From positions 208,750 to 272,749 of the forward strand of contig BPJG01000001.1 in the NCBI GenBank assembly GCA_026004495.1: a DNA stretch of 64,000 nt, in the 5' to 3' direction. A program made the position numbers and the translations under genes. This DNA is from Candidatus Parcubacteria bacterium (GTDB taxonomy: Bacteria > Patescibacteriota > Minisyncoccia > UBA6257 > HR35). The notes under the pieces are model-generated. The model did no database searches and was not told the DNA's origin. It was given only the letters and a program-made list of their open reading frames with translations. Below, in pieces: positions 1,225 through 56,856 of the stretch. How positions within the stretch are numbered: position 1 is the first letter of the stretch; every line of letters starts with the position of its first letter.

Positions 1225-3660
1225 TTAAGCAAAACTAGAAATATATTTATAACGAGCCTCTATTTCTTTTTCTATTTCTTCCTTGGATTTTCCATATTTT
1301 AACAATGAATATTCAATCATTTTTCGAGTTAGTTCAAAATTAGGTGATGATGGTTTAATTGTTTTTATGCTAAAAGCATCAGAAACATAACCATCTATTA
1401 ATAATTTAATATAAAGATGGTAATTAGGAATATTTACAAGGTCAATTTTAGAAAAAATTGGATAAAATTGTTTTTCTAAAAATTCAGCATCTTCACTACC
1501 AACCCTAAAGACAGTAATTGTACCAACATTACCAAATACAGCCGATGATATTTCTTCTGGTAATTGTTTGATATATTGATGAGCTAAAGTTAAAGATAGC
1601 CTATATTTTCGAGCTTCAGATAAAATAGAGGCTATACCCTTAAAGGCAAAATTTTGAAACTCATCAAGAAAAAGGTAAAAATCTTTTCTTTGTTCTTCGG
1701 GTAAATCAACCCTTGAAAAAGCAGCTGATAAAATTTTAGCTACTAAAATCATACCTAAAAGATAAGCACTGGTATCGCCAATTTTACCCTTCGAAAGATT
1801 AACTATCAAAATTTTTCTATTATCCATAAGATCACGAAAGTTAATTACTGACTTAGATTGAGCAATTATAGGTCTTACAAAATCATTAGTTATAAAAGGA
1901 TTTAACTTAGAGGTTATCCAAGTAATCATATTTTCTAAAGATAATTCACCACCGACAACTACAGCTTGCTTAGTCCAAAATTCAACTACAGGATAATTAG
2001 TACATTTAAGCAAAAGTTCACGTCTAAATTTTTCATCAACAAAAACTCTAGAAACTTCCATTAAGGTAAAACCCCAATCAGGGTTATCCATTATCAATAA
2101 AAGTGCGTTTCTTAAATATTGTTCAAACATTGGACCACCAGTTAAACTTAAGTTATATAACTTATCGATAATTTCAATTAAAGTATTAATGATAAAGGTT
2201 TTTTGCTCAGGAAAATTTTTATCATACTCTAAAATATTTAAACCTAAAGGACGAGAGATATCTCCAGGACTAAAATAAATTACATCATCTATTCTTTCTT
2301 TAGGTATTAAACCCATAATTTCTTGAGCAACATCACCATGAGGATCAATAAAGCAAATACCATCACCATTTTTTATATCTTGTTCAGCAATATTTTTTAA
2401 AAGAGTAGTTTTACCTGTTCCTGTTTGCCCAATCAGATAAATATGCCTTCGACGATCATTCTTTTTGATTCTTACTAACGCTCTAGCACCTTGGTAAATA
2501 CTTTCTCCTAAAATTGTTCCCTCAGAGGGTAAATTTGGTGGTGGGGGTGCGGTTCGAGCCAAAAGCCAATGGATAATAGGCGATTTGGTATAAGAGGTTG
2601 GCAAATGAATAATTGAGGCAATTTCTTCTGAATTTAAAATAATTTTTTGACTTCTATTAAAAATTCGAAACGAAAATTCATAAATAAATCTTAACATCTT
2701 TCCTCTTTTTACACGATGAATAATAAATTCATTTAATTGAGGATTTATATACTGATGAAAGGCTGATTCAGCTGTTGTTAATAATTCTTCAGCATCAAAA
2801 ATTGTATTCGAAGAAACACATAGTCTAATATTTACATCAAAAAATGGTTTCGTCATTTTATTTTCTAATTTTTTAATTAAATAATCATCAATAGGTTTTT
2901 GTCTTTCTTCTATTTCTTTTTTTTCTTTAGCCTCTTTCGAAGAAAATATATCGTGCAAAGAACTAAAGGGATTCTCCTTAAAATCTTTACCTTGTTTTAA
3001 TTTATCAATAATTTTTTTTATTTTCTTTGAATATTTAGTTCCTTTAGGGTAAATAATTACTTGATAAGACATACCCTCACCAACTTTTTTAAGTTTATTA
3101 AAAGAAGCCAAAAAACTATCTAGGGGATCATTAGTTCCTTGAGCAATTTCTTGATATGTTTTTATTGGCTTAAAATTATTATCCTTTAAATTAATATAAG
3201 AACCTAATGTTATTCCTTGAGGATTAAAAATATTATAATCTTCTTCTACCAATCTTGCTTCAGAACCAGGCCAAAAAGCTTTAATTGCCTTCTGAATAGG
3301 ATCAAAATACTTTTTAGGAATAGATATATAAAAAAATATTTCTTCGCCGTAGTGTGGCGTGGCAATTTCAAAAACAATAGGATATTTAAGCCTTGATAGG
3401 GTATTAAGGAAATTTTCAAAATTATTTATTTCATCAATTAATCTTGAAGTATGAGATTCAGTTTTAGGCAAGTAATGATATTTAGGTAGTTCAATTAAAA
3501 TCAGAGAGTAATTTAATGATAGCCTTACTCTTTTTAATTCTGAAAATTTTTTAAGATAAAGGACCGTTAAATAAATCACAAATAAACCAAGAATACCAAC
3601 AATTATAGCTGAAAAATAAACCACCGATAAAGAAAAGCTATAATTTTCTAAAAAACTCAT
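1225..3660 (-). CDS. Membrane-anchored P-loop ATPase, type IV coupling protein-like (VirD4/TraD/TraG family)
   Basis: 811 aa. N-terminal TM helix. Walker A 'LIGQTGTGKTT' followed by 'IDPHGD'. Walker B 'LFLDEFQNF' (DEFxN is characteristic of T4CPs). Family assignment from motif recall only. Confidence 0.5.
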   Translation of the reverse strand: MSFLENYSFSLSVVYFSAIIVGILGLFVIYLTVLYLKKFSELKRVRLSLNYSLILIELPKYHYLPKTESHTSRLIDEINNFENFLNTLSRLKYPIVFEIATPHYGEEIFFYISIPKKYFDPIQKAIKAFWPGSEARLVEEDYNIFNPQGITLGSYINLKDNNFKPIKTYQEIAQGTNDPLDSFLASFNKLKKVGEGMSYQVIIYPKGTKYSKKIKKIIDKLKQGKDFKENPFSSLHDIFSSKEAKEKKEIEERQKPIDDYLIKKLENKMTKPFFDVNIRLCVSSNTIFDAEELLTTAESAFHQYINPQLNEFIIHRVKRGKMLRFIYEFSFRIFNRSQKIILNSEEIASIIHLPTSYTKSPIIHWLLARTAPPPPNLPSEGTILGESIYQGARALVRIKKNDRRRHIYLIGQTGTGKTTLLKNIAEQDIKNGDGICFIDPHGDVAQEIMGLIPKERIDDVIYFSPGDISRPLGLNILEYDKNFPEQKTFIINTLIEIIDKLYNLSLTGGPMFEQYLRNALLLIMDNPDWGFTLMEVSRVFVDEKFRRELLLKCTNYPVVEFWTKQAVVVGGELSLENMITWITSKLNPFITNDFVRPIIAQSKSVINFRDLMDNRKILIVNLSKGKIGDTSAYLLGMILVAKILSAAFSRVDLPEEQRKDFYLFLDEFQNFAFKGIASILSEARKYRLSLTLAHQYIKQLPEEISSAVFGNVGTITVFRVGSEDAEFLEKQFYPIFSKIDLVNIPNYHLYIKLLIDGYVSDAFSIKTIKPSSPNFELTRKMIEYSLLKYGKSKEEIEKEIEARYKYISSFA

Positions 3661-10680: not shown

Positions 10681-11034
10681 ATGGTTAGAGTCAAAAGGGG
10701 TAAAATAAAAACTAAAAAAAGAAAGAAAATTTTAAAATTAGCCAAGGGTTACAAGTGGAGTAGAAAATCAAAAGAAAAATTTGCCAAAGAAGCAATTTTG
10801 CATGCTGGCGTAAAAGCTTATCGTGGACGCAAAGAAAAAAAGAGGAATTTTAGAAAATTATGGCAAGTTCAACTTAATGCCTTTCTTAGATCTCGTGGCT
10901 TGAAATATAGTACTTTTATTCATCAATTAAAAGAAAATAATATCATCTTAAATAGAAAAATTTTAGCCGAATTGGCTAATAATTATCCTCAAATTTTAGA
11001 TAATATTATCGAAGAATTAAATTTAAAAAGTTAG
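10681..11034 (+). CDS. rplT: 50S ribosomal protein L20
   Basis: MVRVKRG..., basic N-terminus, NRKILAELA motif; 117 aa. No infC/rpmI upstream; topA sits there instead. Confidence 0.9.
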   Translation: MVRVKRGKIKTKKRKKILKLAKGYKWSRKSKEKFAKEAILHAGVKAYRGRKEKKRNFRKLWQVQLNAFLRSRGLKYSTFIHQLKENNIILNRKILAELANNYPQILDNIIEELNLKS

Positions 11035-14000
11035 CTAAATTATTCTTAAAGGAATCAATTATTTTATTACTAAATCCAAGCTGAGAACATCCCAAGCAAT
11101 CACCTTCATAACTAACCTTTAACAGCCAGCCACCCTTAAGAGCACCATTATAACCCCCAATTAAATAACCAGCATTATCTGCCTCAACAATCGATGAGCC
11201 AAAGCTTATTTCATCTCTACTCTGCCCTCCATAATATTTTACCCAAACTAAATTAAAATTTTTATCAACCTTCATTAACGCTAAAGACCAATCAGAGAAA
11301 TTATTTCCATCTTGCGTTAAGGGTAAATAACCGGTTATCAAAAAATTATTATCGTAATCTAAAATAATATCATTTCCGTAAAAATAATCATTACTAATTA
11401 ATTTTTCTTGAATAACTTCGCCATCATCAGGATTAATTTTTCTTAAAATTAATTTATATCTATTATCATCGGGGTCAAACATATTAGTTAAAGCAATAAT
11501 ATTACCATCATCAGCAAAAATAATCTTTTTAATTGTTTCTCGGCTACCAATTTTTAAAATATATTCTTTTTGCCAACGATAACTAAGATCAGCTTTTACT
11601 TTTACCAAGTAAGATTGATTATTTATTTCTCCACCCGCAAATATAAAAACATTAGTTTGATTTAAGACTGAATTAAATTGACTACTTAAGGCAAAATTAA
11701 TTGAAGAAATGTCCTTTAAAGTAGTAGAAGTAATTAACCAAATTTTTCCATAATTATTATTTGTTCTACCAACAACTATATAATTTATACCATCATAAGT
11801 TATATCACTAAAATAAGATGAATCAAAAGAGTTATCCATAATTAATTTAAGCGAACTATCAAATTGAGCCAAATAACCAGAATTAGCAACAGGATCGTTC
11901 TGATAATAATTACCTAAGGTCACAAAATAATTGCCATCATAAATAACTGATCGAAATTGATGACTAATATAACTTGGATCCATTAAACTACTTGAGCTAA
12001 CTATAATATTACCATTAATATCAAATTTGGCTATCCAGAAAGATGAAGTATTAATAAGTAAATCTTCACCAACAGCAACATAACCATCATCTGCTCTAAT
12101 TAACTTATTAATTTTTTTATTTTTGCCAATATTTTTTGAAAAATAATTATCGCATTGATTGACTAAAATCTTTTGATTTGGCTTGATAACCCTTGAAGTT
12201 AAAGATAGAGGTGTACTAGTAAGGTTGTAATTAGATGTACTAAAGCTTGAAATATCTGAAACAGGGGACGAAATTGTACTAAAGCTAAAAATATTAGTGG
12301 TCGTTATGTTATAAAGATTATTTTTAAGATAAAATAAATTTTTATCAGAAACAAATCTAATTAAATTGAAATAATACTTTGTTATAAATCCAAACCAAAA
12401 CTCTTCAGGCTTTAAATCATCTCCGAATGCTTCTATTATTTTAGTTATTTTTTTTAAATAAGCAATAAAAGGACTATCATCGATAAAACTACCAATTAAT
12501 AAATAACTATTATCATCTAATTGTAAAAAATTATTAAATACTAATCGATCATTAGAAGATAAAGCAGTTATTTTATATTCAGTTAATTTATCAAAGTTTT
12601 GATTTAATTTAATTAAATAATTTTCGCTACTACTATTGACTACTAACCAAAAATTATTTTTTTTATCCTGAAATATTCTTCTAATATCTATAGTTGAATA
12701 ATCGCCAGTATATTTTTTTATCCAGGCTAAATTACCCTGATAATCAGTTTTTACAAAAATATAACTGGTAGCATTTAAAGATTTATCATACATTGCATTA
12801 AAAAAATATCCTCCATCATTAGTTTGAAAAAGATAATTATTTCTTGGAGAATCCATGCTGAAATAAGAAGAAAATGCTATATTATCATATTGCTTTATCC
12901 ACTCAATTTTATTTTGATTATCAAATTTAGCCAAAAAAGCAGGTGGTACAGCCATATAGCCATAACTTCCTAACAAAATAAAGCCATCATCTTGTGTTTT
13001 ATTGCCAGCATATATTCTTCCAAATGTAATCTGATAATAATAATCTCCACCGCTTAAAATATCTCCGGTTGAACTTGAAATTTCAACTAATTGAAAGCCA
13101 GAATAATATCCTATGTTTCTGATTAGATTTATATTGCCTGAAAAATTATTATTAATAAATACCAATTTTTGGACAGCACTACAATCACTACCACTACAAT
13201 AAAGTCTTGACCATTGGGGATTAAAATCTTTATCAGTTTTTATTAGAATAGATTTATCGCTTAGATTATAACCTAAAACATAGCTTTCATCAGGTAATTG
13301 ATGAATGTAATTTAAATCGAGAGGAGATGAAGTATTTAAATAAATTGTTTTGATAAATTTAGGATTGCCGAATTTATCTAAAAAAATAGCTAGAAACGAC
13401 GAAGTGTTAGATGATAAATAATTATTACCAATAACTAAATAATCACCAGCTTTATTTCGAAAAACATAATTTCTAGTTGGATAAAAATTAAATAATTTAT
13501 TCCAACAAATATCCTGGCCCATTAGATTACCATAATTTATACCGAAGTTTAATTTCAAAGCTTGACAAGAACTTAGAGTAGTAGTTCCATAAATAATTGA
13601 TCCTGAGGTGCCAAAAGCAATTAAACATTTATTATTGCCAACCTCTAAAATCTCTTCATCACTACCACCATCAGTTAAAGCGGAAAATTGATTTTTTGTT
13701 TCTTTAAATACTCTTGATTCTAAATTAGCATTAACTTCAAATTGTCGAGCATCGCGCCTAAAAACATAAAGATAAAAATAATTTTTAATTGGTTGACTAT
13801 TATTAATAATATTTAAGGGATCAACTGGCAATTGGGGCAAAATTTGATTATTTTCATTAAAATTTATTGGCAACCAACCTTCACCATTGGGATTAAAAAC
13901 ATTAGTTGCTGATGAATTTTGTTTAATTTGCCAAAGATTGCCATAAGCATCAGTAATAGTTGAAAAATTAAAGGTTGATTGATCAACTGGAATTGAAATA

Positions 14001-14248
14001 TAAATTGACGAATTATCTTCATCTAAACCAGTTAAATCATATAAAGGACCATCCAAATCAGGATTTTTTGCCAGGTTTAAATAGTTATTAATAGCTATTT
14101 CTAAAGCTTGTAAATCTCTTATTCTTTGTAAATCTCTATTTCTTTTGGCTACTTCAATAGGATTAACTAAATAAACAAACAAAGAGGTTAAAATAGCAAT
14201 CAAAGTTATAATAACTAAAATTTCAATTAAAGTAAAACCTTTTTTCAT
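11006..14248 (-). CDS. Giant pseudopilin-fusion surface protein (prepilin N-terminus, GspG-like domain, beta-propeller repeats)
   Basis: 1080 aa. N-terminus MKKGFTLIEILVIITLIAIL = class III signal peptide/prepilin motif (G|FTLIE). ~180 aa GspG-like domain shared with the neighbouring gene (NPDLDGP, GWLPINF, LPVDP, KNYFY). Remainder: repeated ~40 aa G/D/Y-rich propeller-like units. Confidence 0.75.
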   Translation of the reverse strand: MKKGFTLIEILVIITLIAILTSLFVYLVNPIEVAKRNRDLQRIRDLQALEIAINNYLNLAKNPDLDGPLYDLTGLDEDNSSIYISIPVDQSTFNFSTITDAYGNLWQIKQNSSATNVFNPNGEGWLPINFNENNQILPQLPVDPLNIINNSQPIKNYFYLYVFRRDARQFEVNANLESRVFKETKNQFSALTDGGSDEEILEVGNNKCLIAFGTSGSIIYGTTTLSSCQALKLNFGINYGNLMGQDICWNKLFNFYPTRNYVFRNKAGDYLVIGNNYLSSNTSSFLAIFLDKFGNPKFIKTIYLNTSSPLDLNYIHQLPDESYVLGYNLSDKSILIKTDKDFNPQWSRLYCSGSDCSAVQKLVFINNNFSGNINLIRNIGYYSGFQLVEISSSTGDILSGGDYYYQITFGRIYAGNKTQDDGFILLGSYGYMAVPPAFLAKFDNQNKIEWIKQYDNIAFSSYFSMDSPRNNYLFQTNDGGYFFNAMYDKSLNATSYIFVKTDYQGNLAWIKKYTGDYSTIDIRRIFQDKKNNFWLVVNSSSENYLIKLNQNFDKLTEYKITALSSNDRLVFNNFLQLDDNSYLLIGSFIDDSPFIAYLKKITKIIEAFGDDLKPEEFWFGFITKYYFNLIRFVSDKNLFYLKNNLYNITTTNIFSFSTISSPVSDISSFSTSNYNLTSTPLSLTSRVIKPNQKILVNQCDNYFSKNIGKNKKINKLIRADDGYVAVGEDLLINTSSFWIAKFDINGNIIVSSSSLMDPSYISHQFRSVIYDGNYFVTLGNYYQNDPVANSGYLAQFDSSLKLIMDNSFDSSYFSDITYDGINYIVVGRTNNNYGKIWLITSTTLKDISSINFALSSQFNSVLNQTNVFIFAGGEINNQSYLVKVKADLSYRWQKEYILKIGSRETIKKIIFADDGNIIALTNMFDPDDNRYKLILRKINPDDGEVIQEKLISNDYFYGNDIILDYDNNFLITGYLPLTQDGNNFSDWSLALMKVDKNFNLVWVKYYGGQSRDEISFGSSIVEADNAGYLIGGYNGALKGGWLLKVSYEGDCLGCSQLGFSNKIIDSFKNNLANFLNLILR

Positions 14249-17200
14249 TGATTAATTGTTATTGAATTAATTGTAATTGTAGGAATTTGAGATTCGTCCA
14301 GTCTAGGATCCCATTTAAGAATTATAAACATTTTAGAGCAAATTAGATTCAAATTATACAAACGATTTGATCCTTTTTGTAAATTATATTCTTTATCATC
14401 GCAAATAAATTTATATTCTTTTATTTTATCTTGATTATTATTCGTACTAGCATTAATATCAACAACATTAATAAACTTGGGAGGATCAATTACTTCAATA
14501 TAAATAGCATAATTTCTTGCTTTTTTACCTGTTTCTTTGCTACCCAAGAGGGTACTAGTAAAAGTTTCTCCTATCTCAAAAATTTGATTATCAGTAGTAA
14601 TTTTATAATACTTAAATTTTGCTTGTTTATTATACTTATCACCAACACCATCAATCGGCGTTGATGTTCCTTCACCTATCTCATTAATTGCTGAAATTGT
14701 ATAAGTTGCAGAGGTTGCTAAACTCATTAAATCAATATAATTTAAATTGTCTGGTGAATTGGTAGCAAGTAAAATATAATTACTTGAAGTTGCTCTATAA
14801 ATTCGGTATTCTTTTATTTTACCAAAACCAGCTTTGGAGGAATAATTTTCAATTTTATCAATTACTAACCAAGCACCAAAAGTTCCGGTTTGTCTAATTG
14901 AAAAACTTGGTTGGGGTAGTGTCAGAGCAGTTGTACAAATTTCATTACTTGGTAAACTTTCTCCATTAGGATAATTAGCTTTAACCACATAACAATAACT
15001 TTCGCCAGCTAAAAGATTATTATCAGTAAAAGAAAGAGTAGATGTATTTGTTGTTGCATATGGTGAATTACCATAACTACTTCCTTTAATTTTTCGATAA
15101 ATTGAATAATTTAACAATACGCTTTCACCAGCTGAAGCCCAATTAAGAGTAATAGAATTATTCCCTAAAGTATACCTTACATTTTGAGGCGGCAATTTAA
15201 AATAAAAACCAATAGAGTTATTACCTGAAGTTATTAAGGTACTTTGATTATTTATTGCTTTTATGAGATAGTTATTATTAGGTTTACTTTCGTAATTGTA
15301 ATCAATATAAGAAGTAGCGGTAGTGGTAACAATCTTGATTCCATTCCGATAGACAACATAATAATTAACACCGCTTACACCATTCCAAATTAGTTGAATT
15401 CCTGAATCGGAAGTATAACTAAGATTAGGAGAAATGGTTGACAATACACCCGAAAACAATGCTTGACACTTAACTAAGCTTTTATCACTTTCGCCAATTG
15501 AATTAAGTGCGGTAACATAATAACAATAATTAATTCCTTCACTTACCGAATTATCAGTATAAGAAGTAGCTGTTGTTGCAGCAATAAGAATAAAATTATT
15601 TATCTCATTAGTTGAGGTTGATCTATAAATTTTATAATACTGAATATTCTCACCACCATTATATTGAGGAAGTTGCCATTCAAGTACAATAGATAATGAA
15701 CCAGTCGAAATGCTTAAATCTACAGGAGGTGTTGGTCGTAATTTATCAGATGTTGTTGCTGAACAAAATTCATTGGAAAAATTACTAACAAAGAAAAATA
15801 AATGCAAACCACTTCGATAACAATTTTTACCAGATAAAGGACTAGTATCAGTTGCATAATTGCCAAAAATATTTGTTATGTAATTATAATTATCAGATGA
15901 AGTAGCCCGGTAAATATATACAAGAAAACTAGAAAGACTTCTTAAATAATCCAAAAAATTATCAATAGAGAGATAGTTATAATTAGCACCCGATCTTGAA
16001 AAAAGAGTATATCTTTTATCTATTAAATTAAATTCTGTAAAAAAAGATTTTTTAAATAAATCATTCACATTACAAACATTAGCTAAATTTTCATAATCAG
16101 GTAAAATTTTGGAAACGAAATTTAAACTATAATTTAAAACTTGAATATCGGGTGAATTGATTTTTAAATTCGATGAATAATGGAAAAAATTAGATGATAA
16201 AGCTGATGGACTGATAATATTAATTAAAAATCTTTGTTGGATATTACCTTTGTTAAATATATTAAAGACTGGATCACTACTTGAACTAATATTTAGTGCT
16301 AATTGTCTATAAGAAGATGGACCCGTTGTAAAATAATGAGAATTACCAACTATGAAATAATAATCATTAGAAGATATTTCTAAACCATAAAAATTATCAT
16401 TATTATACCAACCAATATTTTTAGCAAAAATTATCTCGCCTGTTGTCGAATTAATTTTCATTACCAAACCGTCATAATTTAGATTATTATATGAATTTGA
16501 TTTACCGATAATAATATAATTACCATCGTAATCTTTTTTAACCTTATAAAGATAGTCATCACCACCAGCTGAATATCTTTTTTGCCAAAGAATTTGACCT
16601 TGATTATCAATTGCAATAGCAAAAGGGTCGTAATGGTTAGCATCAAATTGACTATAGCCAAAAATTAAATAACCAGAAGAGGAGGTCGCGATTGCCATAC
16701 CAAAATCATTACCACCACTATCATAAATTTTTTGCCAAATTAATTTTCCTTCTCTATCTACTTTAATTAAAATCACATCATAATCTTTTCGAAAAGAATT
16801 GCTATAACCTACAATAATATATCCATTATCATTAGCTTTAATTAATCCTTGACCAACATCATTCTTTAGACCACCAAATGTTTTAAAAACTTTTATTACA
16901 CCATTATTATTAAAAAGCGAAAAAATAATATCGTTATCACCTTGACCAAAACTCGAAGAATAACCAGTAAGAATAATTTCATCGCCATCTAAAATTCCAG
17001 CAAATATTTTTTCATCTTTTTTACCACCAATTTTCTTTGACCAAACAGTATCAAATGTCGTCGAAGATATTCTTACCAACAGACCATCATAATTATTACC
17101 AGATTTTACTTGACCTCCCAAGATGAAATAACTGGATGAAGCAAGAATAAAATTAAAACTACTCTCATTGGTTGTACTTGAAATTTTAATAGCTTGAGGA

Positions 17201-20067
17201 TTGCCTAAAGAATCTAATTGATACAAAACACCATTGTAATTTTGATTATTCCATTCCCAACCAACAGTTAAATATTGATTATTGTTTTTAACAACATCAT
17301 TGAAATTATTATTTTTATTATTAGGAAGATAGATTTTAGCAAAACATTGCGAATTATAACGACCAACTATATTACTCTTAAAACCAAAACCATTTGCATT
17401 TTTAGCCTTAACATAATAGTAAATAGGTGTAGAAGCTGAATTATCTTGGTCAAGGTAGGTTAGTCCTGTTGTTGTAGCAAGTAATTGATAGGTAGATGTT
17501 GGTGTTGATGTTGCTTTATAAAGATAATATTCAGTGGTGGCTGCTCCTTCATCAGATATCGGTGGTTGCCAGTTAAGTTGAGTGTAGCTTTCTTGGGTTT
17601 CCCGAAAGTCCAAAGATAAAGGAAAAAGTGGTGTTGAATTCGGACTACCCATAACATAATTTGAAGGAATAGATTCTAAATCACAAAAATCGCCTGATAT
17701 TTTAGTAACATAATAATAATAATTCTTTCCATTGATTAAACCAGTTCGAGTAAAACTATTTGCTGGAGTTGTTCCAATAAGTTGATATTCATCGCCAGTT
17801 GACTCATAAATTGCAAAGGAGGGCTTAGTATCTTTAGCATCACCATCTTCCCAACTAAGACTAATTTTATTGACTAAAGATTGGAGACTTAAATTATTAG
17901 GAGATATACATTGGGTTCCAGGAGATGAACAATTTCCATAACAACCACTTTCAATATTACTTCTTTTGCTTTCGCCAATTGAATTAACAGCAGTAATATA
18001 GTAATAATAAGTAGTTTTAGAAGCAGTGGATAAATCATTATAGCTAGTAGCAGTAGTCGAAGCAATAAAAATATATTGAGAAGAAGTTGCTCGATAAATA
18101 TTGTAATAACTAACAGCTGAACCTTCATTAGAAAGAGGTGGTTCCCAAGTAAGACGAATACCATTAGCTAACGCTGAAGTCTGAAGTTTGCCGGGTGGTA
18201 TAGGATAACCTCGGGGAGTCGCAGAAACAGTAGTAGCATAATTAGAAACACCAAATTGATTTTTTGCTTGAATAGTATATTCATAAGTTTGTCCGTTAAT
18301 TAAATCTTGATGAGTGAATTGATAGCTATTTGTTGGAATAGCAGGAAATTCAAAAAGATAACGCCAATTATTTTCTCCGCTTAACCTGTAATAAAGTAAA
18401 TAAGAATCAATAACTGAACCACCATCATTGTTGGGATATTGCCAAGATAGGTTTATAGTTTTATTACCTGAAAAAGCTGAAAAATTAATTGGTGGTGAAG
18501 GATTTGTACCAGGGACAATGCATCGTTGTTGGCTAAAATTACTACTACCTACTTTATTAACAGCTTTAATTTTATAGCAATATTTTTGACCATTATTAAG
18601 ATTGGAATGTTGATAAACTAAAATATTATAACTTGTAGTTGCAATCAAGTTATCATTGTCATTATATATTTCATATCTAATTATTTCGCTACCACCATCA
18701 TCATCTGGTTTTAACCAAGTTATTACAATTTGCCCATCTCCAGGACTTAATTTATCAATAATAGGTGGTGAAGAGGTAGCAGTTATTTTAACATACACAG
18801 GTATAGTTATAGTTGAATCAGATTCAACTAAATAAATATTTTGCTTACAATAAAAATCTTGTTTAAATGATTTTAGCATTAAAGTAAATATTAAAGAAGT
18901 AGAAGAATAAGGATTTACGATAAAACTAGTTGGAGTGGAAATAACATAAGAAGGACAAGTCGTAGTTGTCTCTTTATAAAAAAAATCACGTAATTCAACT
19001 GATAGCTTTGAATCACCATTATTATAAATGATCAATTCATGGCTTACAGAGCTATCGGTTGTTTTTGCTTCTAAAATAGCAGTTGGGGGGTTAATTCTAT
19101 ATATTGGCGCGGCCGAAAAATTACAAGTTATATTTATTGAGTATGGATTGACTTTTTTAGGATCATTGTGCCAAATAAATAATATTGTTTCTGTTGTGGT
19201 TGCTGAAGTCAATGATCTACCATCACAAGTTAAAATAAGGGTTGTAGTATTATTGGGAGCAATAACAAAATTATTTTTATTTATTTTAAGCAATGAATTC
19301 TGGTTTGATTGAGTAATTTGATTAATTAATAAATAAGCTGTACCGGTATTATAAATATAAAGATAAGTAGAGGATGATTGAGAAATAGGGGCAGTTAAGA
19401 CTAAGGAGGTGGTATTAGTATTTAAAGACGGAAATGAAAGTTGATATTTACTATAACCATAAATTACTGGTGGAATAATATTTAAATCTGTTCCAACTTC
19501 AAAGGATTCGCTATCACCTCCATCACTTTTGGCAATTTCAATAAATTTAGGACATTCAAATTTAGCATTTAATTCATAAGATTTAGCTGATTTTTTAAAA
19601 GCATAAGAATAAAAATAATTTTTATTAAAAGAATTAATTGGATCTACTGGTAAAAGATTAATTGCTTTTTTTGATAAAGATAAAAAATTTATTGGTAACC
19701 AACCTTGGCCATTAATAAGCGAAGAAAGGGCAGTCGAAGAAGGTTGAATTATTAACCAATTTTTTCCTTCGAAACTAAATGAAGTTGAGGTTGATTCTTT
19801 ATCTTTAGGAATACTTATAAATATTGAGGAGCTTGATTCATCAAATCCAGAATTAGAAAAATAAGGACCATCTAAATCAGGATTATTTGTTTCCGAGAAG
19901 TAATGAGCAATCGCTGAATTTAATGAATTAAGGTCATTTATTCTCTGGGTATCTCGAGAGCATTTGATAATATCTAAAGGTTTAATTAAATTAATAACAA
20001 AAGTTGAAATTATACCCAAAGCTGATAAAACAGCAATTAATTCAATTAAAGTAAAACCTTTTTTCAT
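14245..20067 (-). CDS. Giant pseudopilin-fusion surface protein (prepilin N-terminus, multiple FN3 domains, beta-propeller repeats)
   Basis: 1940 aa. MKKGFTLIELIAVLSALGII prepilin N-terminus; paralogous GspG-like domain. At least 4-5 FN3-like modules (e.g. PSPPINFSAFSGNKTINLSWQYPNNDGGS...YEYTIQAKN). ~45 aa repeats (GG.NDxG..I...DGYII.GYS.S) typical of SBBP/DUF5122-like propellers. Overlaps the downstream paralog by 4 nt. Confidence 0.75.
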   Translation of the reverse strand: MKKGFTLIELIAVLSALGIISTFVINLIKPLDIIKCSRDTQRINDLNSLNSAIAHYFSETNNPDLDGPYFSNSGFDESSSSIFISIPKDKESTSTSFSFEGKNWLIIQPSSTALSSLINGQGWLPINFLSLSKKAINLLPVDPINSFNKNYFYSYAFKKSAKSYELNAKFECPKFIEIAKSDGGDSESFEVGTDLNIIPPVIYGYSKYQLSFPSLNTNTTSLVLTAPISQSSSTYLYIYNTGTAYLLINQITQSNQNSLLKINKNNFVIAPNNTTTLILTCDGRSLTSATTTETILFIWHNDPKKVNPYSINITCNFSAAPIYRINPPTAILEAKTTDSSVSHELIIYNNGDSKLSVELRDFFYKETTTTCPSYVISTPTSFIVNPYSSTSLIFTLMLKSFKQDFYCKQNIYLVESDSTITIPVYVKITATSSPPIIDKLSPGDGQIVITWLKPDDDGGSEIIRYEIYNDNDNLIATTSYNILVYQHSNLNNGQKYCYKIKAVNKVGSSNFSQQRCIVPGTNPSPPINFSAFSGNKTINLSWQYPNNDGGSVIDSYLLYYRLSGENNWRYLFEFPAIPTNSYQFTHQDLINGQTYEYTIQAKNQFGVSNYATTVSATPRGYPIPPGKLQTSALANGIRLTWEPPLSNEGSAVSYYNIYRATSSQYIFIASTTATSYNDLSTASKTTYYYYITAVNSIGESKRSNIESGCYGNCSSPGTQCISPNNLSLQSLVNKISLSWEDGDAKDTKPSFAIYESTGDEYQLIGTTPANSFTRTGLINGKNYYYYVTKISGDFCDLESIPSNYVMGSPNSTPLFPLSLDFRETQESYTQLNWQPPISDEGAATTEYYLYKATSTPTSTYQLLATTTGLTYLDQDNSASTPIYYYVKAKNANGFGFKSNIVGRYNSQCFAKIYLPNNKNNNFNDVVKNNNQYLTVGWEWNNQNYNGVLYQLDSLGNPQAIKISSTTNESSFNFILASSSYFILGGQVKSGNNYDGLLVRISSTTFDTVWSKKIGGKKDEKIFAGILDGDEIILTGYSSSFGQGDNDIIFSLFNNNGVIKVFKTFGGLKNDVGQGLIKANDNGYIIVGYSNSFRKDYDVILIKVDREGKLIWQKIYDSGGNDFGMAIATSSSGYLIFGYSQFDANHYDPFAIAIDNQGQILWQKRYSAGGDDYLYKVKKDYDGNYIIIGKSNSYNNLNYDGLVMKINSTTGEIIFAKNIGWYNNDNFYGLEISSNDYYFIVGNSHYFTTGPSSYRQLALNISSSSDPVFNIFNKGNIQQRFLINIISPSALSSNFFHYSSNLKINSPDIQVLNYSLNFVSKILPDYENLANVCNVNDLFKKSFFTEFNLIDKRYTLFSRSGANYNYLSIDNFLDYLRSLSSFLVYIYRATSSDNYNYITNIFGNYATDTSPLSGKNCYRSGLHLFFFVSNFSNEFCSATTSDKLRPTPPVDLSISTGSLSIVLEWQLPQYNGGENIQYYKIYRSTSTNEINNFILIAATTATSYTDNSVSEGINYCYYVTALNSIGESDKSLVKCQALFSGVLSTISPNLSYTSDSGIQLIWNGVSGVNYYVVYRNGIKIVTTTATSYIDYNYESKPNNNYLIKAINNQSTLITSGNNSIGFYFKLPPQNVRYTLGNNSITLNWASAGESVLLNYSIYRKIKGSSYGNSPYATTNTSTLSFTDNNLLAGESYCYVVKANYPNGESLPSNEICTTALTLPQPSFSIRQTGTFGAWLVIDKIENYSSKAGFGKIKEYRIYRATSSNYILLATNSPDNLNYIDLMSLATSATYTISAINEIGEGTSTPIDGVGDKYNKQAKFKYYKITTDNQIFEIGETFTSTLLGSKETGKKARNYAIYIEVIDPPKFINVVDINASTNNNQDKIKEYKFICDDKEYNLQKGSNRLYNLNLICSKMFIILKWDPRLDESQIPTITINSITINQ

Positions 20068-20126: not shown

Positions 20127-20198
20127 GCCGCCATCGTCTAATGGCAAGGACACCGCTTTCTCAAGGCGGAAATACGGGTTCGACTCCCGTTGGCGGCA
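20127..20198 (+). tRNA. tRNA-Glu (anticodon CUC)
   Basis: Cloverleaf: acceptor GCCGCCA/TGGCGGC + A, D-arm TCGTCTAATGGCAAGGAC, anticodon stem CCGCT/GGCGG with loop TTCTCAA, T-arm GGGTTCGACTCCC. Collinear with E. coli tRNA-Glu. Confidence 0.8.
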
Positions 20199-21632
20199 AT
20201 GAGATATCTAATTACAACCTCTATACCTTATGTAAATGATAATCCTCATATAGGACATCTTTATGAATATATTTTAGCAGACATTTTTGCCCGTTATTTT
20301 AGAAATAAAAATGATATCTTCTTTTTATCAGGAGTGGACGAAAATGGAATAAAAATAGCAAAATCTGCTATTGAAAATAATAAGAAAATAAAAGATTTTG
20401 TTGATGAAAAATATCTAAGTTTTTATTCTCTGAAGGATAAATTTTATTTATCTTTTGATAATTTTATTAGAACAAGTAGTGAAAATCATAAATGGGGAGT
20501 TTATAAATTTTGGCAATTATGCCAAGATGATATTTATATAGATAAATATTGTGGTTATTATTGTTATAGTTGCGAAGCCTATTATGAAGAGAACGAAGTT
20601 GAAAATTTAATTTGCCCTCTTCACAAAAAGAAATTAGAAAAAATTGAAGAAAAGAATTATTTTTTCAGACTCACAAAATATTTAGATCAAATTAAATTAT
20701 TAATTGAAAAAGAAAAAATAAAAATTTATCCTCAAGAAAAAAAAATAGAAATTTTAAATATTTTGAAAGAAAAAAAGATTAAAGATTTAAGTATTTCTCG
20801 TGATATCAACAGAAGCTATGGTTGGGGTATAACAACTCCTAATGATAATTCTCAGGTAATTTATGTCTGGTTTGATGCTTTAATAAATTATTTGTCTGGC
20901 TTAGGTTTTGGTAGTGATAATGAAACAAATTTTAAAAAATATTGGCACGAAGGAGAAGTTATTCATTTTATAGGTAAAGATATAGTTAAATTTCATGCTA
21001 TTTATTGGCCAGCAATGTTATTATCTGCTAAAATAAAGGTTCCCGATAAAATAGTTGTTCATTATTTTATCAATATACGAGGAGAAAAAATGTCAAAAAC
21101 AATTGGCAATGTAATTGGACCCAACGATTTATTAAATAACAATTTAGAACCAGATGTTATTAGAGCTTATTTCGCTTATCAAAATATATTTAACGATTGG
21201 GACTTTAATTTTCAAAATATAGTTAATTTTCGAGAAGGTATTTTAAAAAAAGAATTGGGTAATCTAATATTAAGAATTTATGGCCTTTTTAGAAAATACA
21301 ATAGGGATATTAAATTACAAAAAAATTTATTAAAAAAGGAAAATCTTACTACCTTAAATAATTATTCAAAATATATGGCTGATTTTGAAATAAATATAGC
21401 TTATCAAAATATATTTAATTTAGTAAAAGAACTAAATCAATTTATTGATAAAGAAAAAATTTGGCAAAATTTAAGTGAAGAAAATATTTCTACCTTGGCT
21501 TACAATCTTATTGATATTCTAAATGTTTATCAATTTTTAATGCCTGAAAAATTAAATCGAGTAAAAAATAATTTAAAAATTCAAGATGATTTTCTTATAA
21601 ATAAAGATTTGGAATTAAAACCTATCTTTTAA
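20199..21632 (+). CDS. metG: Methionyl-tRNA synthetase (compact)
   Basis: HIGH motif (PYVNDNPHIGH), KMSKS (KMSKTIG), Zn-knuckle cysteines; start codon placed immediately after the tRNA-Glu 3' end (track start 20190 overlaps the tRNA). Confidence 0.88.
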   Translation: MRYLITTSIPYVNDNPHIGHLYEYILADIFARYFRNKNDIFFLSGVDENGIKIAKSAIENNKKIKDFVDEKYLSFYSLKDKFYLSFDNFIRTSSENHKWGVYKFWQLCQDDIYIDKYCGYYCYSCEAYYEENEVENLICPLHKKKLEKIEEKNYFFRLTKYLDQIKLLIEKEKIKIYPQEKKIEILNILKEKKIKDLSISRDINRSYGWGITTPNDNSQVIYVWFDALINYLSGLGFGSDNETNFKKYWHEGEVIHFIGKDIVKFHAIYWPAMLLSAKIKVPDKIVVHYFINIRGEKMSKTIGNVIGPNDLLNNNLEPDVIRAYFAYQNIFNDWDFNFQNIVNFREGILKKELGNLILRIYGLFRKYNRDIKLQKNLLKKENLTTLNNYSKYMADFEINIAYQNIFNLVKELNQFIDKEKIWQNLSEENISTLAYNLIDILNVYQFLMPEKLNRVKNNLKIQDDFLINKDLELKPIF

Positions 21633-24849: not shown

Positions 24850-25485
24850 ATGGGCCTTTTGTTTAAATTATCAATAATAATATTTATCTTAGCCTTAATA
24901 ACTTTTGCTTTTAGTTATTATTTTAAAAATTATTATAACTTAAATGAAACATATATTTTAGATTCAAAATTACCTAATAGTAAATCTACTAATACTATTC
25001 AACAAACATCAATAGAAAGTAATAATCAAATAACAAATACAACTGAAACTAATCAGAGTGATTTATTAAATATTCAAAATAATGTAAAAGTATTGGTTCC
25101 AATTGAAGATAAAAACAAAAAAATAAATTCTAATCAAAATAATGATAATTTAAATTCAAGTAATAATTTAACCTCAACAGAAGAAAATATTTCTTATGAA
25201 TATAAAGGTGAAGTTATAATTAAGGCAAGCGAATTTAAGTTTGAACCAAATATTTTTAGAGTTAAGGAAGGTCAAAAAGTAAAATTAATTATAAAAAACG
25301 AAGGTAAAATTCCTCATAACTTAAAAATAGAGAAAGAAAATATTGTTTTTCAAACATCACTAATAGGTCCTAATGAAGAATCGATATTAGAATTTACTAC
25401 TCCTCCTAAGGGTGAATATGATTTTTATTGTACCTTAGATGACCATAAGCTAAGGGGTATGTTTGGTAAAATGATAGTCGAATGA
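24850..25485 (+). CDS. Membrane-anchored cupredoxin (type-1 blue copper protein)
   Basis: 211 aa. N-terminal TM, N/S/T-rich linker, C-terminal ~100 aa cupredoxin with full ligand set in canonical spacing: His (IPHNL), Cys-x2-Asp-x-His (YCTLDDH), Met (GMFG). Confidence 0.65.
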   Translation: MGLLFKLSIIIFILALITFAFSYYFKNYYNLNETYILDSKLPNSKSTNTIQQTSIESNNQITNTTETNQSDLLNIQNNVKVLVPIEDKNKKINSNQNNDNLNSSNNLTSTEENISYEYKGEVIIKASEFKFEPNIFRVKEGQKVKLIIKNEGKIPHNLKIEKENIVFQTSLIGPNEESILEFTTPPKGEYDFYCTLDDHKLRGMFGKMIVE

Positions 25486-30097: not shown

Positions 30098-30140
30098 TTT
30101 TTTAAAATTAGATCTAATTTCGACTCTTTATTTTATTATA

Positions 30141-31037
30141 TCAAATATTTTTACAGATTTCTATTCCCTCTTCTAAGCTAATTTTTGGTTTCCACCCTAA
30201 AATTTTTCGTGCCAAGGAATTATCACCCAAAGTATGCCGTGGTTCTCCTTTTCTTTTTGGTAAATAATTTTTTTTGCCACCAATTAATTTAGCAACATAA
30301 TTGATTGAATGATTTTTACCATAACAAATATTAATTACTTCTCCTTTGCCAACCCTTTTACTTTTCATTGCTAAAATATTTGCTTCAATAACATCATCAA
30401 TATAAGTAAAATCTCTTGTTTGTTTGCCATCGCCATAAATTGTTAATGGCTTTCCTTCTTTTTTAAGTTTTAAAAATCTTCCAATAACCAAAGCATAGGG
30501 ACCTTCTGGATCCATTCTTGGACCATAAACATTAAAATATCTTAGAGAAACAGTTTCTAAATCATATAAACTTGAAAATAATTTGCAATAATATTCACCC
30601 ACTAATTTTTGTAAGGCATAAGGAGAAAGCGGATTAGGAACCATCGATTCTCTTAAGGGCAAGTTTTTTTGTTCTCCATAAACCGAAGAACTTGAAGAAT
30701 AAATTACTCTTTTAGCTTTATTTTTATCACTAGCATAAAGAACATTTAAGGTGCCATCAATATTGACTCTATGAGTTTCAATTGGTTTATCAATTGAAAG
30801 ATGTACTCTTGGCAAAGCGGCTGTATGGAAAACATAATCAACTCCTTTAAATAAAGGTAAAATTTTATCCAAATTACAAATATCAACTTTATAAAAAATA
30901 GCTTTAGGATTTAAATTTTCTTTTTTACCACCAGAAAGATTATCAATCACGATAACTTTATATCCTTCTTTAATCAATCTATCAACTAAATGACTGCCAA
31001 TAAATCCTGCTCCACCCGTAACTAAAATCTTTGCCAT
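30141..31037 (-). CDS. NAD-dependent nucleotide-sugar epimerase/dehydratase (GalE/WbpP-like SDR)
   Basis: TGGAGFIGSH Rossmann motif; catalytic YxxxK (YALQK); 298 aa. Confidence 0.8.
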   Translation of the reverse strand: MAKILVTGGAGFIGSHLVDRLIKEGYKVIVIDNLSGGKKENLNPKAIFYKVDICNLDKILPLFKGVDYVFHTAALPRVHLSIDKPIETHRVNIDGTLNVLYASDKNKAKRVIYSSSSSVYGEQKNLPLRESMVPNPLSPYALQKLVGEYYCKLFSSLYDLETVSLRYFNVYGPRMDPEGPYALVIGRFLKLKKEGKPLTIYGDGKQTRDFTYIDDVIEANILAMKSKRVGKGEVINICYGKNHSINYVAKLIGGKKNYLPKRKGEPRHTLGDNSLARKILGWKPKISLEEGIEICKNI

Positions 31038-31080
31038 AATTAAATTATAATATATCTTGCTATTTTGATAAAATTAAATT

Positions 31081-34043: not shown

Positions 34044-34083
34044 GAATACATTATACTTTTTATTTTTTCAAAATACTTTTTCC

Positions 34084-37917: not shown

Positions 37918-37929
37918 TTTTTAATTTTA

Positions 37930-42140: not shown

Positions 42141-42186
42141 AATAAATAAAAAATTAATTTCGGCTCTTATGATAATTATATCATAA

Positions 42187-55512: not shown

Positions 55513-55917
55513 TTAATCAAGAATAAAAATTCTTAAGTTTTGTAGGTTTTGATTATTTTTCTCTACCTGAAAATTAAATCTTAATTCAAATGGTTGATTT
55601 ATAAACTTGCTAACAATATTACCAGAAATATTTCTGCTTTCAGGATTAATTTCATTTAAGCTAAAAAAAGAGTTTATATCATTAATAATAAAAGATTTAT
55701 TTGTTGGTTGTAAATAATCATTTAAAAAAATTTCTTGAAGTGCCATATTAAGAATTGATAATTGTGAATATAGTAATCGTGCATTACTAACAATAGATTT
55801 AGAAAAATTATTTTCTTTAACTAAAATTATCCCAAATAGAATTAAAATGCTAAAACTTAATAAAAAAATAACAATTATAAAAACGAATGTTGCTTGACCT
55901 TTATTTAAAAACTCCAT
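55513..55917 (-). CDS. Small pilin-like membrane protein
   Basis: 134 aa; N-terminal KGQATFVFIIVIFLL hydrophobic segment after Gly; last of three consecutive small N-terminally hydrophobic genes. Confidence 0.4.
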   Translation of the reverse strand: MEFLNKGQATFVFIIVIFLLSFSILILFGIILVKENNFSKSIVSNARLLYSQLSILNMALQEIFLNDYLQPTNKSFIINDINSFFSLNEINPESRNISGNIVSKFINQPFELRFNFQVEKNNQNLQNLRIFILD

Positions 55918-56366
55918 AAATATAAAGTAGATGTTAAATTTAATGTTTGATTATTATTTGAATTTGATATCTTAATAAAAACATTATAAAAATCTGAATT
56001 AGATGAAACATCAAAATTATTAACTTTAATATTATCAGAGGTAAATTTTGTCGAAGTTACTTCATTTTCTAAATAAATTTTTTCATTTAATAGATATAAT
56101 TTTTCATAACCTTCAGGATAAAAATTAAATTTTATACTACTTGAAGTTATTTCTGTTGAAATGGCTGAAATTGAATTAAAATAAAGTCTATTTATAATTC
56201 TAAAAACATCATTTCTTAAATTTAGTTTATCCAAATATATAGAAGAATAAAATGTTATACCATAAAAAATTATCGTTGTCAAAACACCCAAAATACTAAT
56301 TATTGAAATATAAATAATTAATTCTATTAAAGTAAAAGATTTATTGTGATAATTCAATTTGGCCAT
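55905..56366 (-). CDS. Pseudopilin (type IV pilin-like), start trimmed to internal Met
   Basis: MAKLNYHNKSFTLIELIIYISIISILG: prepilin-type motif (xFTLIEL with Glu at +5). Confidence 0.55.
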   Translation of the reverse strand: MAKLNYHNKSFTLIELIIYISIISILGVLTTIIFYGITFYSSIYLDKLNLRNDVFRIINRLYFNSISAISTEITSSSIKFNFYPEGYEKLYLLNEKIYLENEVTSTKFTSDNIKVNNFDVSSNSDFYNVFIKISNSNNNQTLNLTSTLYLWSF

Positions 56367-56856
56367 TAATTTTAATATTCTCAGATTTATTATTGTATTG
56401 ATTAATAATTCCACTTGAGGCGTCGACAATGCTATCGGTAGCCACCTCCCAACTATCTTGAATAAAAATCAACTCCTTAATATTTGTAATTTTCAAAGGA
56501 AAGCTATAAATATCTTTAGATGTTTGAATATAAACATTTAAGCTATCATCAGTTATTTCAAACCAACGGTAATAACCATTAAGATAATTATCTTTACCGA
56601 CTTTAATTTCATAATTATTATCAAAATAATAGGGTTGATTTTTTAATAAATTTTCAAATTGTGAATAATTTTTCCTTGCTATACCTAAAACAATACTTTG
56701 ATAAGATAAGGCTGAATTATAAATAATAATAGATTTATCAGCATTTTCAATTGATTGGGGAATTATATTAAAAATTAAAAATATTATCAAAGAAAGAAAA
56801 GATAAGATAAGAATACCTGTTAAAACTTCAAGTAATAATTGTCCATTATTTTGCAT
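56341..56856 (-). CDS. Pseudopilin (type IV pilin-like)
   Basis: MQNNGQLLLEVLTGILIL: Gly then hydrophobic helix with Glu at +5. Confidence 0.55.
   Translation of the reverse strand: MQNNGQLLLEVLTGILILSFLSLIIFLIFNIIPQSIENADKSIIIYNSALSYQSIVLGIARKNYSQFENLLKNQPYYFDNNYEIKVGKDNYLNGYYRWFEITDDSLNVYIQTSKDIYSFPLKITNIKELIFIQDSWEVATDSIVDASSGIINQYNNKSENIKINGQIELSQ

Follow-up and report, generated by a model that had tools for sequence, protein, structure and literature searches.

A conserved tandem pair of giant pilin-like proteins, candidate pilus-displayed adhesins of a hot-spring Parcubacteria bacterium

Bacteria of the CPR (Patescibacteria) live attached to other microbes, and their recognition of the host is known mainly from a few cultivated Saccharibacteria. 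In the tiny genome of a hot-spring member of the Parcubacteria, the MAG KatS3mg094, two adjacent genes, herein designated A and B, raise the question of what is carried, and where, by proteins that begin as type IV pilins and continue to 1940 and 1080 amino acids, respectively. The initial annotation of the 64-kb stretch of DNA analysed here (the window) had described these two open reading frames and had taken them to fit an episymbiotic, CPR-like lifestyle; the frames were recovered on the minus strand with exactly the same coordinates (Table 1), and the source is indeed a CPR/Parcubacteria MAG. The stop codon of A and the start codon of B overlap in the ATGA at 14245-14248, and the pair takes up 9062 nt, or 14% of the window, both as described before. 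The product of B is identical to P0008 (KatS3mg094_213). The hairpin downstream of B is the sole terminator-like site between 10600 and 20400, a weak indication that A and B may form one transcription unit.

Table 1. Features of the A-B locus and of the small pilin-like ORFs in the same window.
Feature	Coordinates	Strand	Basis or remark
Gene A, predicted modular type IV pilin, 1940 aa	14245..20067	(-)	intact ORF; first of pair
A aa 1-205, MKKG/FTLIE signal peptide (class III) and predicted complete pilin module	19453..20067	(-)	TIGR02532; identity to B; family profiles
A aa 206-432, pair of Ig-like domains, one HYDIN/VesB-like and one MSP-like	18772..19452	(-)	Pfam
A aa 433-900, first five-FN3 array	17368..18771	(-)	Pfam fn3 and iterated HMM
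A aa 922-1267, beta-propeller-like region (a ~52-aa repeat in 6-7 copies)	16267..17304	(-)	repeat HMM
A aa 1358-1805, second five-FN3 array	14653..15996	(-)	iterated HMM
A aa 1806-1940, C-terminal domain	14248..14652	(-)	without Pfam match
Gene B, predicted modular type IV pilin, 1080 aa	11006..14248	(-)	ORF; second of pair
B aa 1-205, MKKG/FTLIE signal peptide (class III) and pilin module	13634..14248	(-)	N_methyl, TIGR02532 just below cut-off; AlphaFold
B aa 206-258, conserved Cys-containing linker	13475..13633	(-)	C208, C228, C248
B aa 259-600, beta-propeller 1	12449..13474	(-)	repeat HMM, AlphaFold, fold searches
B aa 601-712, helix and small beta domain between propellers	12113..12448	(-)	AlphaFold
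B aa 713-1068, second beta-propeller, of seven-bladed type	11045..12112	(-)
B aa 1069-1080, C-terminal tail ...LANFLNLILR	11009..11044	(-)	predicted helical
Terminator-like hairpin	10963..10979	(-)	just 3' of B
Three small pilin-like ORFs	55513..56856	(-)	prepilin motifs GQLLLE and KS/FTLIE

Both proteins open with MKKGFTLIE, with Gly at position -1 and Glu at +5, and carry the whole class III signature of a short basic leader, Gly, FTLIE and a hydrophobic stretch of about 20 residues. This prepilin motif, already recognised in the initial annotation, is backed by TIGR02532 (A, 25.5 bits against a cut-off of 16.3; B, 15.9 bits, slightly below it) and by Pfam N_methyl (PF07963; IPR012902), to which A (17.8 bits) and B (20.3 bits) both score slightly below the cut-off of 21.2. 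After BLASTP comparison, the two N-terminal modules were found to be 42% identical from residue 1 to about 205-220 (E 7e-38), and each of the motifs quoted before (RDxQRIxDL, NPDLDGP, GWLPINF, LPVDP and KNYFY) is present in both proteins. The module accounts for 10.6% of A, in agreement with the 10-15% formerly given for both proteins, but for 19% of B. In a 38-sequence family alignment (A6), all 16 family-invariant residues, including Glu5, are retained in A and B. A long N-terminal alpha-1 helix is indicated both by the AlphaFold model of B, with helices at 7-28 and 30-58/59 followed by beta strands, and by matches of the family profiles to solved pilins, at 1.9e-9 to 1e-3: geopilin (1.9e-9), S. 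sanguinis PilE1 (1.6e-6, profile positions 10-112), Thermus PilA (3.3e-6, positions 10-100) and the GspG chain 5wda (1.9e-5, alpha-1 only). The globular head of the module was modelled with pLDDT below 50 and gave no Foldseek match at E<0.3, and thus the pilin fold past alpha-1 and the first strands rests on the sequence profiles. The module is the most constrained and slowest-evolving part of the proteins (about 63% identity, dN/dS 0.15-0.40), and such a constraint appears to exceed the need of a mere signal or anchor.

Downstream of this module, independent domains of the adhesion type (Ig, FN3 and beta-propellers) were identified, of which the FN3 domains and propellers had been anticipated. 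The predicted order in A is the pilin module, two Ig-like domains, five FN3 domains, a propeller-like region of about seven blades, five more FN3 domains and a C-terminal domain. Of the Ig-like domains, one matches PF22544 at residues 227-305 (27.2 bits, cut-off 25.5) and the other gives a weak MSP match at 324-398. The FN3 domains (Pfam fn3, 138.8 bits) were resolved by iterated HMM into 10 copies, 433-514, 524-613, 623-705, 721-801 and 814-900 in the first array, which also matches titin FN3 in the PDB, and 1358-1441, 1446-1532, 1545-1616, 1625-1709 and 1730-1805 in the second. FN3 arrays had been proposed for both proteins, and hold for A; B carries none. The propeller repeats proposed for both were detected in both: a purpose-built repeat HMM found six strong and one weak copy in A, and the same repeat type in B. 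The C-terminal domain of A (aa 1806-1940), to which the Pfam search gave no match, is 47-72% identical among the closer orthologs.

The order in B is the pilin module followed by two beta-propellers. AlphaFold modelling was performed for B; it agrees with the expectation of propellers after an N-terminal helix, and does not extend that agreement to the pilin head, for the reason given above. Propeller 1 was modelled as all-beta with pLDDT of roughly 60-90, and propellers were matched in the fold searches. The preceding linker is of low pLDDT, with 62-79% identity and conserved Cys residues among orthologs; the segment between the propellers consists of a helix (593-607) and strands (624-688) of mixed confidence, and the Pfam search of residues 601-712 gave no match. 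The C-terminal tail is the most conserved segment of B, with a mean identity of 80% among orthologs. An N-terminal pilin module joined to C-terminal domains that are not pilus-specific is the design already described as 'modular pilins' (PMC8179133), here extreme in size.

As judged by sequence searches, the N-modules of A and B belong to a large Patescibacteria-specific pilin family, with 745 cluster representatives at E<=1e-30, in which N_methyl was matched in 89 of 104 members and TIGR02532 in 30 of 38 sequences. Among the 108 nearest representatives, 72 are longer than 270 aa, and the modules added in the long ones include ConA-like lectin (19), FN3, Big_7, Kelch, PQQ and dockerin domains, indicating that the carrying of cargo is the rule in this family, not the exception. 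Stand-alone members of about 200 aa were found inside pilB/pilC/pilT/pilD clusters of other Patescibacteria (L019, L030, L040 and L053). With respect to the source genome, the initial annotation had made its proposal depend on a prepilin peptidase and a pilus assembly ATPase; the latter was identified, a PilB-type ATPase of 554 aa with T2SSE and MshEN domains (P0186, KatS3mg094_311), on the 634,165-bp contig that also carries B, and neither PilD (peptidase A24) nor PilC is encoded inside the 64-kb window. A and B are surrounded by housekeeping genes; pilB is about 98 genes away, and no pilus gene is next to them. The three small pilin-like ORFs elsewhere in the window, one of which (55905-56429) scores 24.5 bits with N_methyl against the cut-off of 21.2, are candidates for partner minor pilins of A and B.

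Taken together, we favour, with modest confidence, the reading of A and B as modular type IV pilins of giant size by which adhesin modules are displayed on pili, and by analogy with known systems they are probably host-binding proteins. Prepilin peptidase would cleave past Gly4, with the hydrophobic alpha-1 helix remaining embedded in the membrane, and PilB-driven machinery would then build A and B, as minor pilins of low abundance, into type IV pili. Their place would most likely be at or near the pilus tip, because such bulky cargo could hardly be packed within the body of the filament, and in a CPR cell there is no outer-membrane secretin through which they would have to pass. The Ig/FN3 arrays, from general domain dimensions, may form a spacer of roughly 50 nm, and the propellers and C-terminal domain may bind a surface ligand, either glycan or protein, on the host or partner cell.

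The pilin module might instead be a device for export and anchoring only, in which case A and B would be peptidase-processed, membrane-held and non-polymerised surface fibrils that reach the host from the cell body, like the sugar-binding class III signal-peptide proteins of the archaeal 'bindosome'. We consider this unlikely but worth serious weight: the 12 Ig/FN3 domains and propeller of A, at the length estimated above, would reach beyond a cell wall or S-layer with no need of a pilus, the pair is not adjacent to pilus machinery, pilB is missing inside 10 kb at 50 of the 55 family loci, and to our knowledge no pilin of 120-215 kDa has ever been demonstrated in a filament. Against it, the whole module of about 200 aa is retained with every invariant residue and evolves the slowest, and the modular pilins that have been studied experimentally occur in pili (PMC8179133, PMC11623550).

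That the propellers are enzymes (e.g. CylK-like or lyase-like) that the pilus delivers to the surface of the host is improbable, since integrin alpha, YncE, Lp49 and WD40 proteins score nearly as high in the fold searches, the sequence match to CylK is insignificant (E 0.03) and no catalytic motif was identified. The seven-bladed propeller is a generic scaffold.

As to its history, the initial annotation took the pair for a duplicated, diversifying cassette, and a recent duplication under fast, host-range diversification would be in keeping with the tandem order with ATGA overlap, the identity between the N-modules, the somewhat faster evolution of the C-terminal modules than of the pilin module, and the shorter versions found at the same locus in relatives (A-type, 1070 aa; B-type, 746-759 aa). 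The comparative data make this very unlikely, and indicate by sequence a tight and anciently conserved pair. In the neighbour-joining tree, the pilin modules of A and B fall into separate old clades, each with its own C-terminal architecture; the order metG-A-B-rplT is found in at least six related genomes; and orthologs keep to 1922-1954 aa for A and 1074-1094 aa for B, both lengths and order being conserved in L001, L002, L004 and L005 and partly in L006-L010. The proposed check of dN/dS, carried out domain by domain, gave domain-averaged values of 0.15-0.49 throughout, at dS of 0.65-1.3, which is near saturation, and no DNA-level tandem repeats exist in the pair. Since relatives hold the shorter versions at the same locus, gain or loss of modules has taken place on a long time scale.

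Scarcely credible is the assignment of A and B, also proposed initially, to the GspG/ComGC-type pseudopilins of type II secretion or the competence pseudopilus: they share the prepilin motif and alpha-1 helix with these, give weak matches to GspG, GspH and ComGC/D/E models (E 1e-3 to 1e-6) and have one ortholog labelled 'pseudopilin PulG' by JGI, but the GspG, GspH and ComG matches are confined to residues ~2-57 (alpha-1) with scores far beneath the cut-offs, the globular parts are unmatched, neither a secretin nor any other Gsp gene was encountered, and the clusters in which the stand-alone relatives sit also encode PilD and PilT, the ATPase of retraction, as is typical of type IV pili and not of T2SS/Com operons. 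GspG identity was rejected for want of a full-length, above-cut-off match including the globular domain (TIGR01710, 18.6-21.2 bits against 88.85, residues 3-56 only), and the T2SSG head domain (PF08334) is absent among the commonest Pfam families of 104 relatives. ComGC identity was likewise rejected (NF040999, 16.2-19.3 bits against 75, residues 2-25 only), with no comG context in the 64-kb window. Because the alpha-1 helix alone matches those models, the shared module is not recognisable as a GspG/ComGC domain.

Among known systems, the closest in design are S. sanguinis PilB (pilin plus vWA) and PilC (pilin plus ConA-like lectin), pilus-borne adhesins for which the term modular pilins was used (Raynaud et al. 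2021, PMC8179133; Shahin et al. 2023, PMC9934059). A monoderm-type envelope is common to both systems, but S. sanguinis PilB is of about 460 aa, compared with 1940 aa and about 18 modules in A and with 1080 aa and two propellers in B, and A and B differ further in their Patescibacteria-specific module and in being a conserved tandem pair far from pilus genes. An InterPro survey listed pilins with FN3 (up to 3 copies), with lectin (PF13385) and with propeller repeats, many from CPR; the most extreme multi-domain modular pilin cited is of 860 aa, and the table holds no combination of 10 FN3 domains and a propeller as in A (PMC8179133). In CofB/TcpB, which initiate assembly and bind partners at the pilus tip (PMC8179133), a pilin module is likewise followed by extra beta-rich domains; compared by description, these proteins of about 420-520 aa belong to diderm type IVb systems, with extra domains unlike those of A and B. 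By architecture, A and B resemble PilX2 (and PilX1) of the saccharibacterium Nanosynbacter lyticus TM7x. PilX2 is a CPR minor pilin with a C-terminal seven-bladed beta-propeller; its deletion halves host binding, and a role as a lectin-like adhesin of the pilus tip has been proposed for it (PMC11623550). PilX2 has one RCC1-type propeller and a non-canonical signal peptide and sits in a pilin locus (PMC11623550), whereas A and B have the canonical G/FTLIE, an orphan location, one or two propellers with a different repeat that has no Pfam match and, in A, the FN3/Ig arrays. The tip adhesins PilY1/PilC of Pseudomonas and Neisseria are also large, pilus-associated and built on a beta-propeller with variable extra modules. 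PilY1, however, is not itself a pilin and docks onto a minor-pilin complex. A PilY1/PilC-type adhesin was rejected, since A and B are themselves pilins and no PilY1-domain Pfam match was obtained in A, B, their segments or the commonest families of the 104 relatives.

More speculatively, and with considerable doubt, the pilin module may serve as a general 'display tag' in this lineage of Parcubacteria, perhaps widely in Patescibacteria, with A and B as a fixed core-genome host-recognition pair of 120 and 215 kDa, either loaded at pilus tips or kept in the membrane as pilin-anchored fibrils. If this is true, no type IV filament machine would be known to handle subunits larger than A and B, and an undescribed mode of assembly or display of bulky cargo would be implied. 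A and B push the size range of the type IV pilin family far past the characterised examples, raise the question of how, or whether, the type IV pilus machine handles subunits of 120-215 kDa, and, for a lineage of Parcubacteria that is uncultivated, supply specific genes as candidates for host recognition.

Both giant reading frames of the initial annotation were recovered exactly where it had placed them, on the minus strand: A, of 1940 residues, and B, of 1080 residues, each opening with the prepilin motif that it had reported and joined at an ATGA overlap, in which the ATG of B lies over the TGA of A. In the AT-rich window (~26% GC), a tRNA-Glu gene lies immediately upstream of A, and a terminator-like hairpin, the sole such site in the region, directly past B; a promoter scan of the region, uninformative in DNA of 26% GC, gave 66 sites against 67 expected. 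For the methionyl-tRNA synthetase ORF, the TTG listed as its start overlaps the tRNA-Glu(CTC) gene, and the true start probably lies further downstream. Over its C-terminal 865 residues, B matches the NCBI protein KatS3mg094_213 at 100% identity; the contig that encodes this protein, of 634 kb, belongs to a Candidatus Parcubacteria MAG. This MAG, mg094, comes from Katase hot spring sediment that was sequenced as a PacBio HiFi metagenome (PMC9671151), a source that makes assembly artefacts an unlikely origin of the giant ORFs, and the same ORF lengths were found in orthologs from independent samples. No pilus annotation for mg094 is given in the hot spring paper or its supplements (PMC9671151); some orthologs carry the pipeline labels 'prepilin-type N-terminal cleavage/methylation domain-containing protein' or 'pseudopilin PulG'.

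Features of the two giant ORFs and of other genes in the window
Feature	Window coordinates (strand)	Residues	Remarks
A	14245-20067 (-)		1940-aa ORF, start MKKGFTLIE
A, pilin module		1-205	
A, two Ig-like domains		206-432	HYDIN/VesB-like Ig, 27.2 bits
A, first FN3 array		433-900	five domains
A, propeller-like region		922-1267	6-7 repeats
A, linker between propeller-like region and second FN3 array			poorly conserved
A, second FN3 array		1358-1805	five domains
A, C-terminal domain			135 aa, without any match
B	11006-14248 (-)		1080-aa ORF, start MKKGFTLIE
B, C-terminal tail	11009-11044 (-)	1069-1080	...LANFLNLILR
Three small pilin-like ORFs together	55513-56856 (-)		directly downstream of fusA
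Small pilin-like ORF	56341-56856 (-)		begins MQNNGQLLLEV
Small pilin-like ORF	55905-56429 (-)		probable start MAKLNYHNKS/FTLIEL, Ser not Gly at -1; N_methyl 24.5 vs cut-off 21.2
Small pilin-like ORF	55513-55917 (-)		begins KGQATFVFII, without Glu5
VirD4/TrwB/TraG-like coupling ATPase	1225-3660 (-)		811 aa
Methionyl-tRNA synthetase ORF	20190-21632 (+)		TTG start as listed
tRNA-Glu(CTC)	20127-20198 (+)		
Secreted cupredoxin-domain proteins	24850-25485 (+), 28529-30097 (-), 46445-46855 (-)		three proteins
Presumed surface-glycan gene run	~30100-43000		judged from translations only
Asn/Gln-rich secreted proteins	51432-52202 (-), 52420-53586 (+)		divergent pair

By BLASTP, A and B share 42% identity across residues 1 to ~220 (E 7e-38), and beyond the N-module, the common first ~205 residues, weak similarity among repeats of ~55 residues. 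The prepilin models match both proteins around their thresholds (TIGR02532, A 25.5 and B 15.9 bits, cut-off 16.3; PF07963, A 17.8 and B 20.3 bits, cut-off 21.2). The proposal that the module is a GspG/ComGC-like domain of 180 residues found no support and was abandoned, because the matches of the GspG, GspH and ComG models are confined to residues ~2-57, the alpha-1 segment, and score far below their cut-offs. A profile of the family alignment A1, searched against 1.84 billion cluster representatives, detected 745 proteins at E<=1e-30, a number that rises to 5886 at E<=1e-10; N_methyl matched 89 of 104 family members, and TIGR02532 30 of 38. Against solved pilins, the profile of a second alignment (A6, 38 sequences) gave 1.9e-9 for geopilin, 1.6e-6 for S. 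sanguinis PilE1 (profile positions 10-112), 3.3e-6 for Thermus PilA (positions 10-100) and 1.9e-5 for GspG, the last in alpha-1 only. AlphaFold modelled the N-module as a kinked N-terminal helix of ~52 residues followed by beta strands; for the module alone, on an alignment of 9 sequences, confidence was low (mean pLDDT 60, head <50), and Foldseek returned no fold match in the PDB for this model.

All 16 family-invariant residues are kept in both A and B. Complete stand-alone members (~180-240 aa), counted only where the ORF has an internal stop within a long locus, lie within canonical type IV pilus clusters of other Patescibacteria: pilin-pilin-PilB-PilC-minor pilins (locus L040), PilB-PilT-PilC-pilin-PilD (L053) and pilin-PilB(-PilC) (L030 and L019), with the gene assignments verified by Pfam T2SSE, MshEN, T2SSF and Peptidase_A24. 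Some 'stand-alone' matches of the first search were fragments, since the end of P0001 is an artefact peptide, and P0002 matches the N-terminus of a giant in locus L010. Judged by the clusters in which its stand-alone relatives sit, the N-module is to be regarded as a genuine type IV pilin, from a family specific to Patescibacteria. The CPR 'Pam' pili were set aside, as their donor-strand exchange marks a different system.

The repeat copies in the cargo, the domains that follow the pilin module, were located by iterated HMMs, self-BLAST having found no internal repeats. In B, a conserved Cys-containing linker follows the pilin module, and the most conserved segment among its orthologs (~80%) is the 12-residue C-terminal tail, preceded by a conserved DCLGC motif and possibly a docking or membrane-association helix. 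Among the nearest family representatives, 72 of 108 exceed 270 aa and 8 of 108 exceed 1000 aa, some short entries being perhaps fragments; the domains fused in the family include Laminin_G_3 (19), fn3, Big_7, Lcl_C, Kelch, PQQ and dockerin. A and B share the modular pilin design defined for PilB (vWA) and PilC (lectin) of S. sanguinis. An InterPro survey listed >1200 modular pilins, spread over 264 architectures and in many cases from CPR phyla, including pilin with FN3 (<=3 copies), with the PF13385 lectin and with propeller repeats, the most extreme multi-domain example cited being of 860 aa (PMC8179133). The design itself is thus already known, and A and B are unusually large new examples of it.

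The order metG-(tRNA)-A-B-rplT-topA is kept in five related loci, those of the sister MAG KatS3mg095 (L001), a JGI metagenome contig (L002), L003, L004 and L005, with orthologs of 1922-1954 aa for A and 1074-1094 aa for B; five further loci (L006-L010) show a looser form, with B-type proteins of 746-759 aa and one A-type protein of 1070 aa. The pilin module is the best-conserved part across orthologs (~63% identity), the cargo domains being 42-59% and the A linker 22% identical. Since the paralogs A and B, at 42% amino-acid identity, are pointless to compare for dN/dS, four orthologs were used (Nei-Gojobori), and gave 0.15-0.49 in every domain, lowest in the pilin module, as rough values, for dS is near saturation (0.65-1.3). 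In a neighbour-joining tree of the N-module, A-type and B-type sequences fall in separate clades, each with its own architecture, and no DNA tandem repeats were found. On these comparisons the pair is best described as an old, stable core-genome feature of the lineage under purifying selection, and not as a recent one or as the duplicated, diversifying cassette once proposed; gain and loss of modules over long times is evident. The initial annotation is thus largely confirmed as an observation, its reading as pilin-fused adhesins being retained and those as GspG pseudopilins and as a diversifying duplicate given up.

No pilB, pilC, pilD or pilT gene was found within the window, and no pil gene beyond its edges on Logan contigs of 3-5 kb. 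Using as query the PilB of a related MAG that also bears an A-type giant (L049 and L010), we recovered KatS3mg094_311 (554 aa, MshEN and T2SSE, 63% identity to that query), which is encoded on the 634,165-bp contig of the pair, together with KatS3mg095_0065 of the sister genome; the assembly ATPase that the pilus reading called for is therefore present. The sister pilB is an orphan beside a class A penicillin-binding protein gene, near dnaA/dnaN (L062, 7879-12094), and the same setting, outside any pilus operon, was found in L061 and L049 (4515-8275), so that pilus genes appear to be scattered around the genomes of this lineage. Many of the Patescibacteria PilB/GspE homologs in the search list (P0185, P0190-P0222 etc.) reach 860-966 aa, almost double the usual length, and bear extra P-loop/AAA-type Pfam matches, which suggests duplicated or fused ATPase domains. 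The three small pilin-like ORFs of the window are a possible minor-pilin priming set.

Elsewhere in the window, the 811-aa coupling ATPase (TrwB_AAD_bind 33.5, T4SS-DNA_transf 29.4, TraG-D_C 24.1 bits) keeps its position in both sister loci, L001 and L002, which list it as DUF8128; it may be part of the type IV secretion system, or conjugation-like system, of Patescibacteria. The two Asn/Gln-rich proteins have calcium-binding repeats of the dockerin type (for the 388-aa member, Dockerin_1 24.9 bits) and are probably another surface or adhesion feature. Genes for glycosyltransferases, methyltransferases, NDP-sugar epimerases/dehydrogenases and asparagine-synthase-like proteins stand in a long run, presumably a surface-glycan cluster. 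Three secreted cupredoxin-domain proteins (Copper-bind 41.5 bits for the 211-aa one) occur within 64 kb of a metabolically minimal genome.

The pilin module and the cargo domains, their conservation and the presence of PilB were observed directly; we propose further that prepilin peptidase would cleave A and B, that alpha-1 would anchor them in the membrane, and that the pilus machinery would load them as low-abundance subunits. Their likely position is the tip, because such bulky cargo could not pack in the filament body and because the CPR envelope, being without a secretin, sets no size limit of that kind. The Ig/FN3 arrays would serve as a ~50-nm spacer, as estimated from typical domain sizes, and the propellers and C-terminal domain are predicted to bind a ligand on the host surface. 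In the main rival reading, A and B stay membrane-anchored via the pilin helix and never polymerise; the sequence data fit loading and anchoring alike and do not separate them, but assembly is favoured by the strong constraint that spans the whole pilin module. Efficient host binding by Saccharibacteria TM7x requires PilX2, a pilin that bears a propeller (PMC11623550). A and B mark an extreme of size among type IV pilin-family proteins and are candidate host-recognition genes in an uncultivated Parcubacteria lineage.
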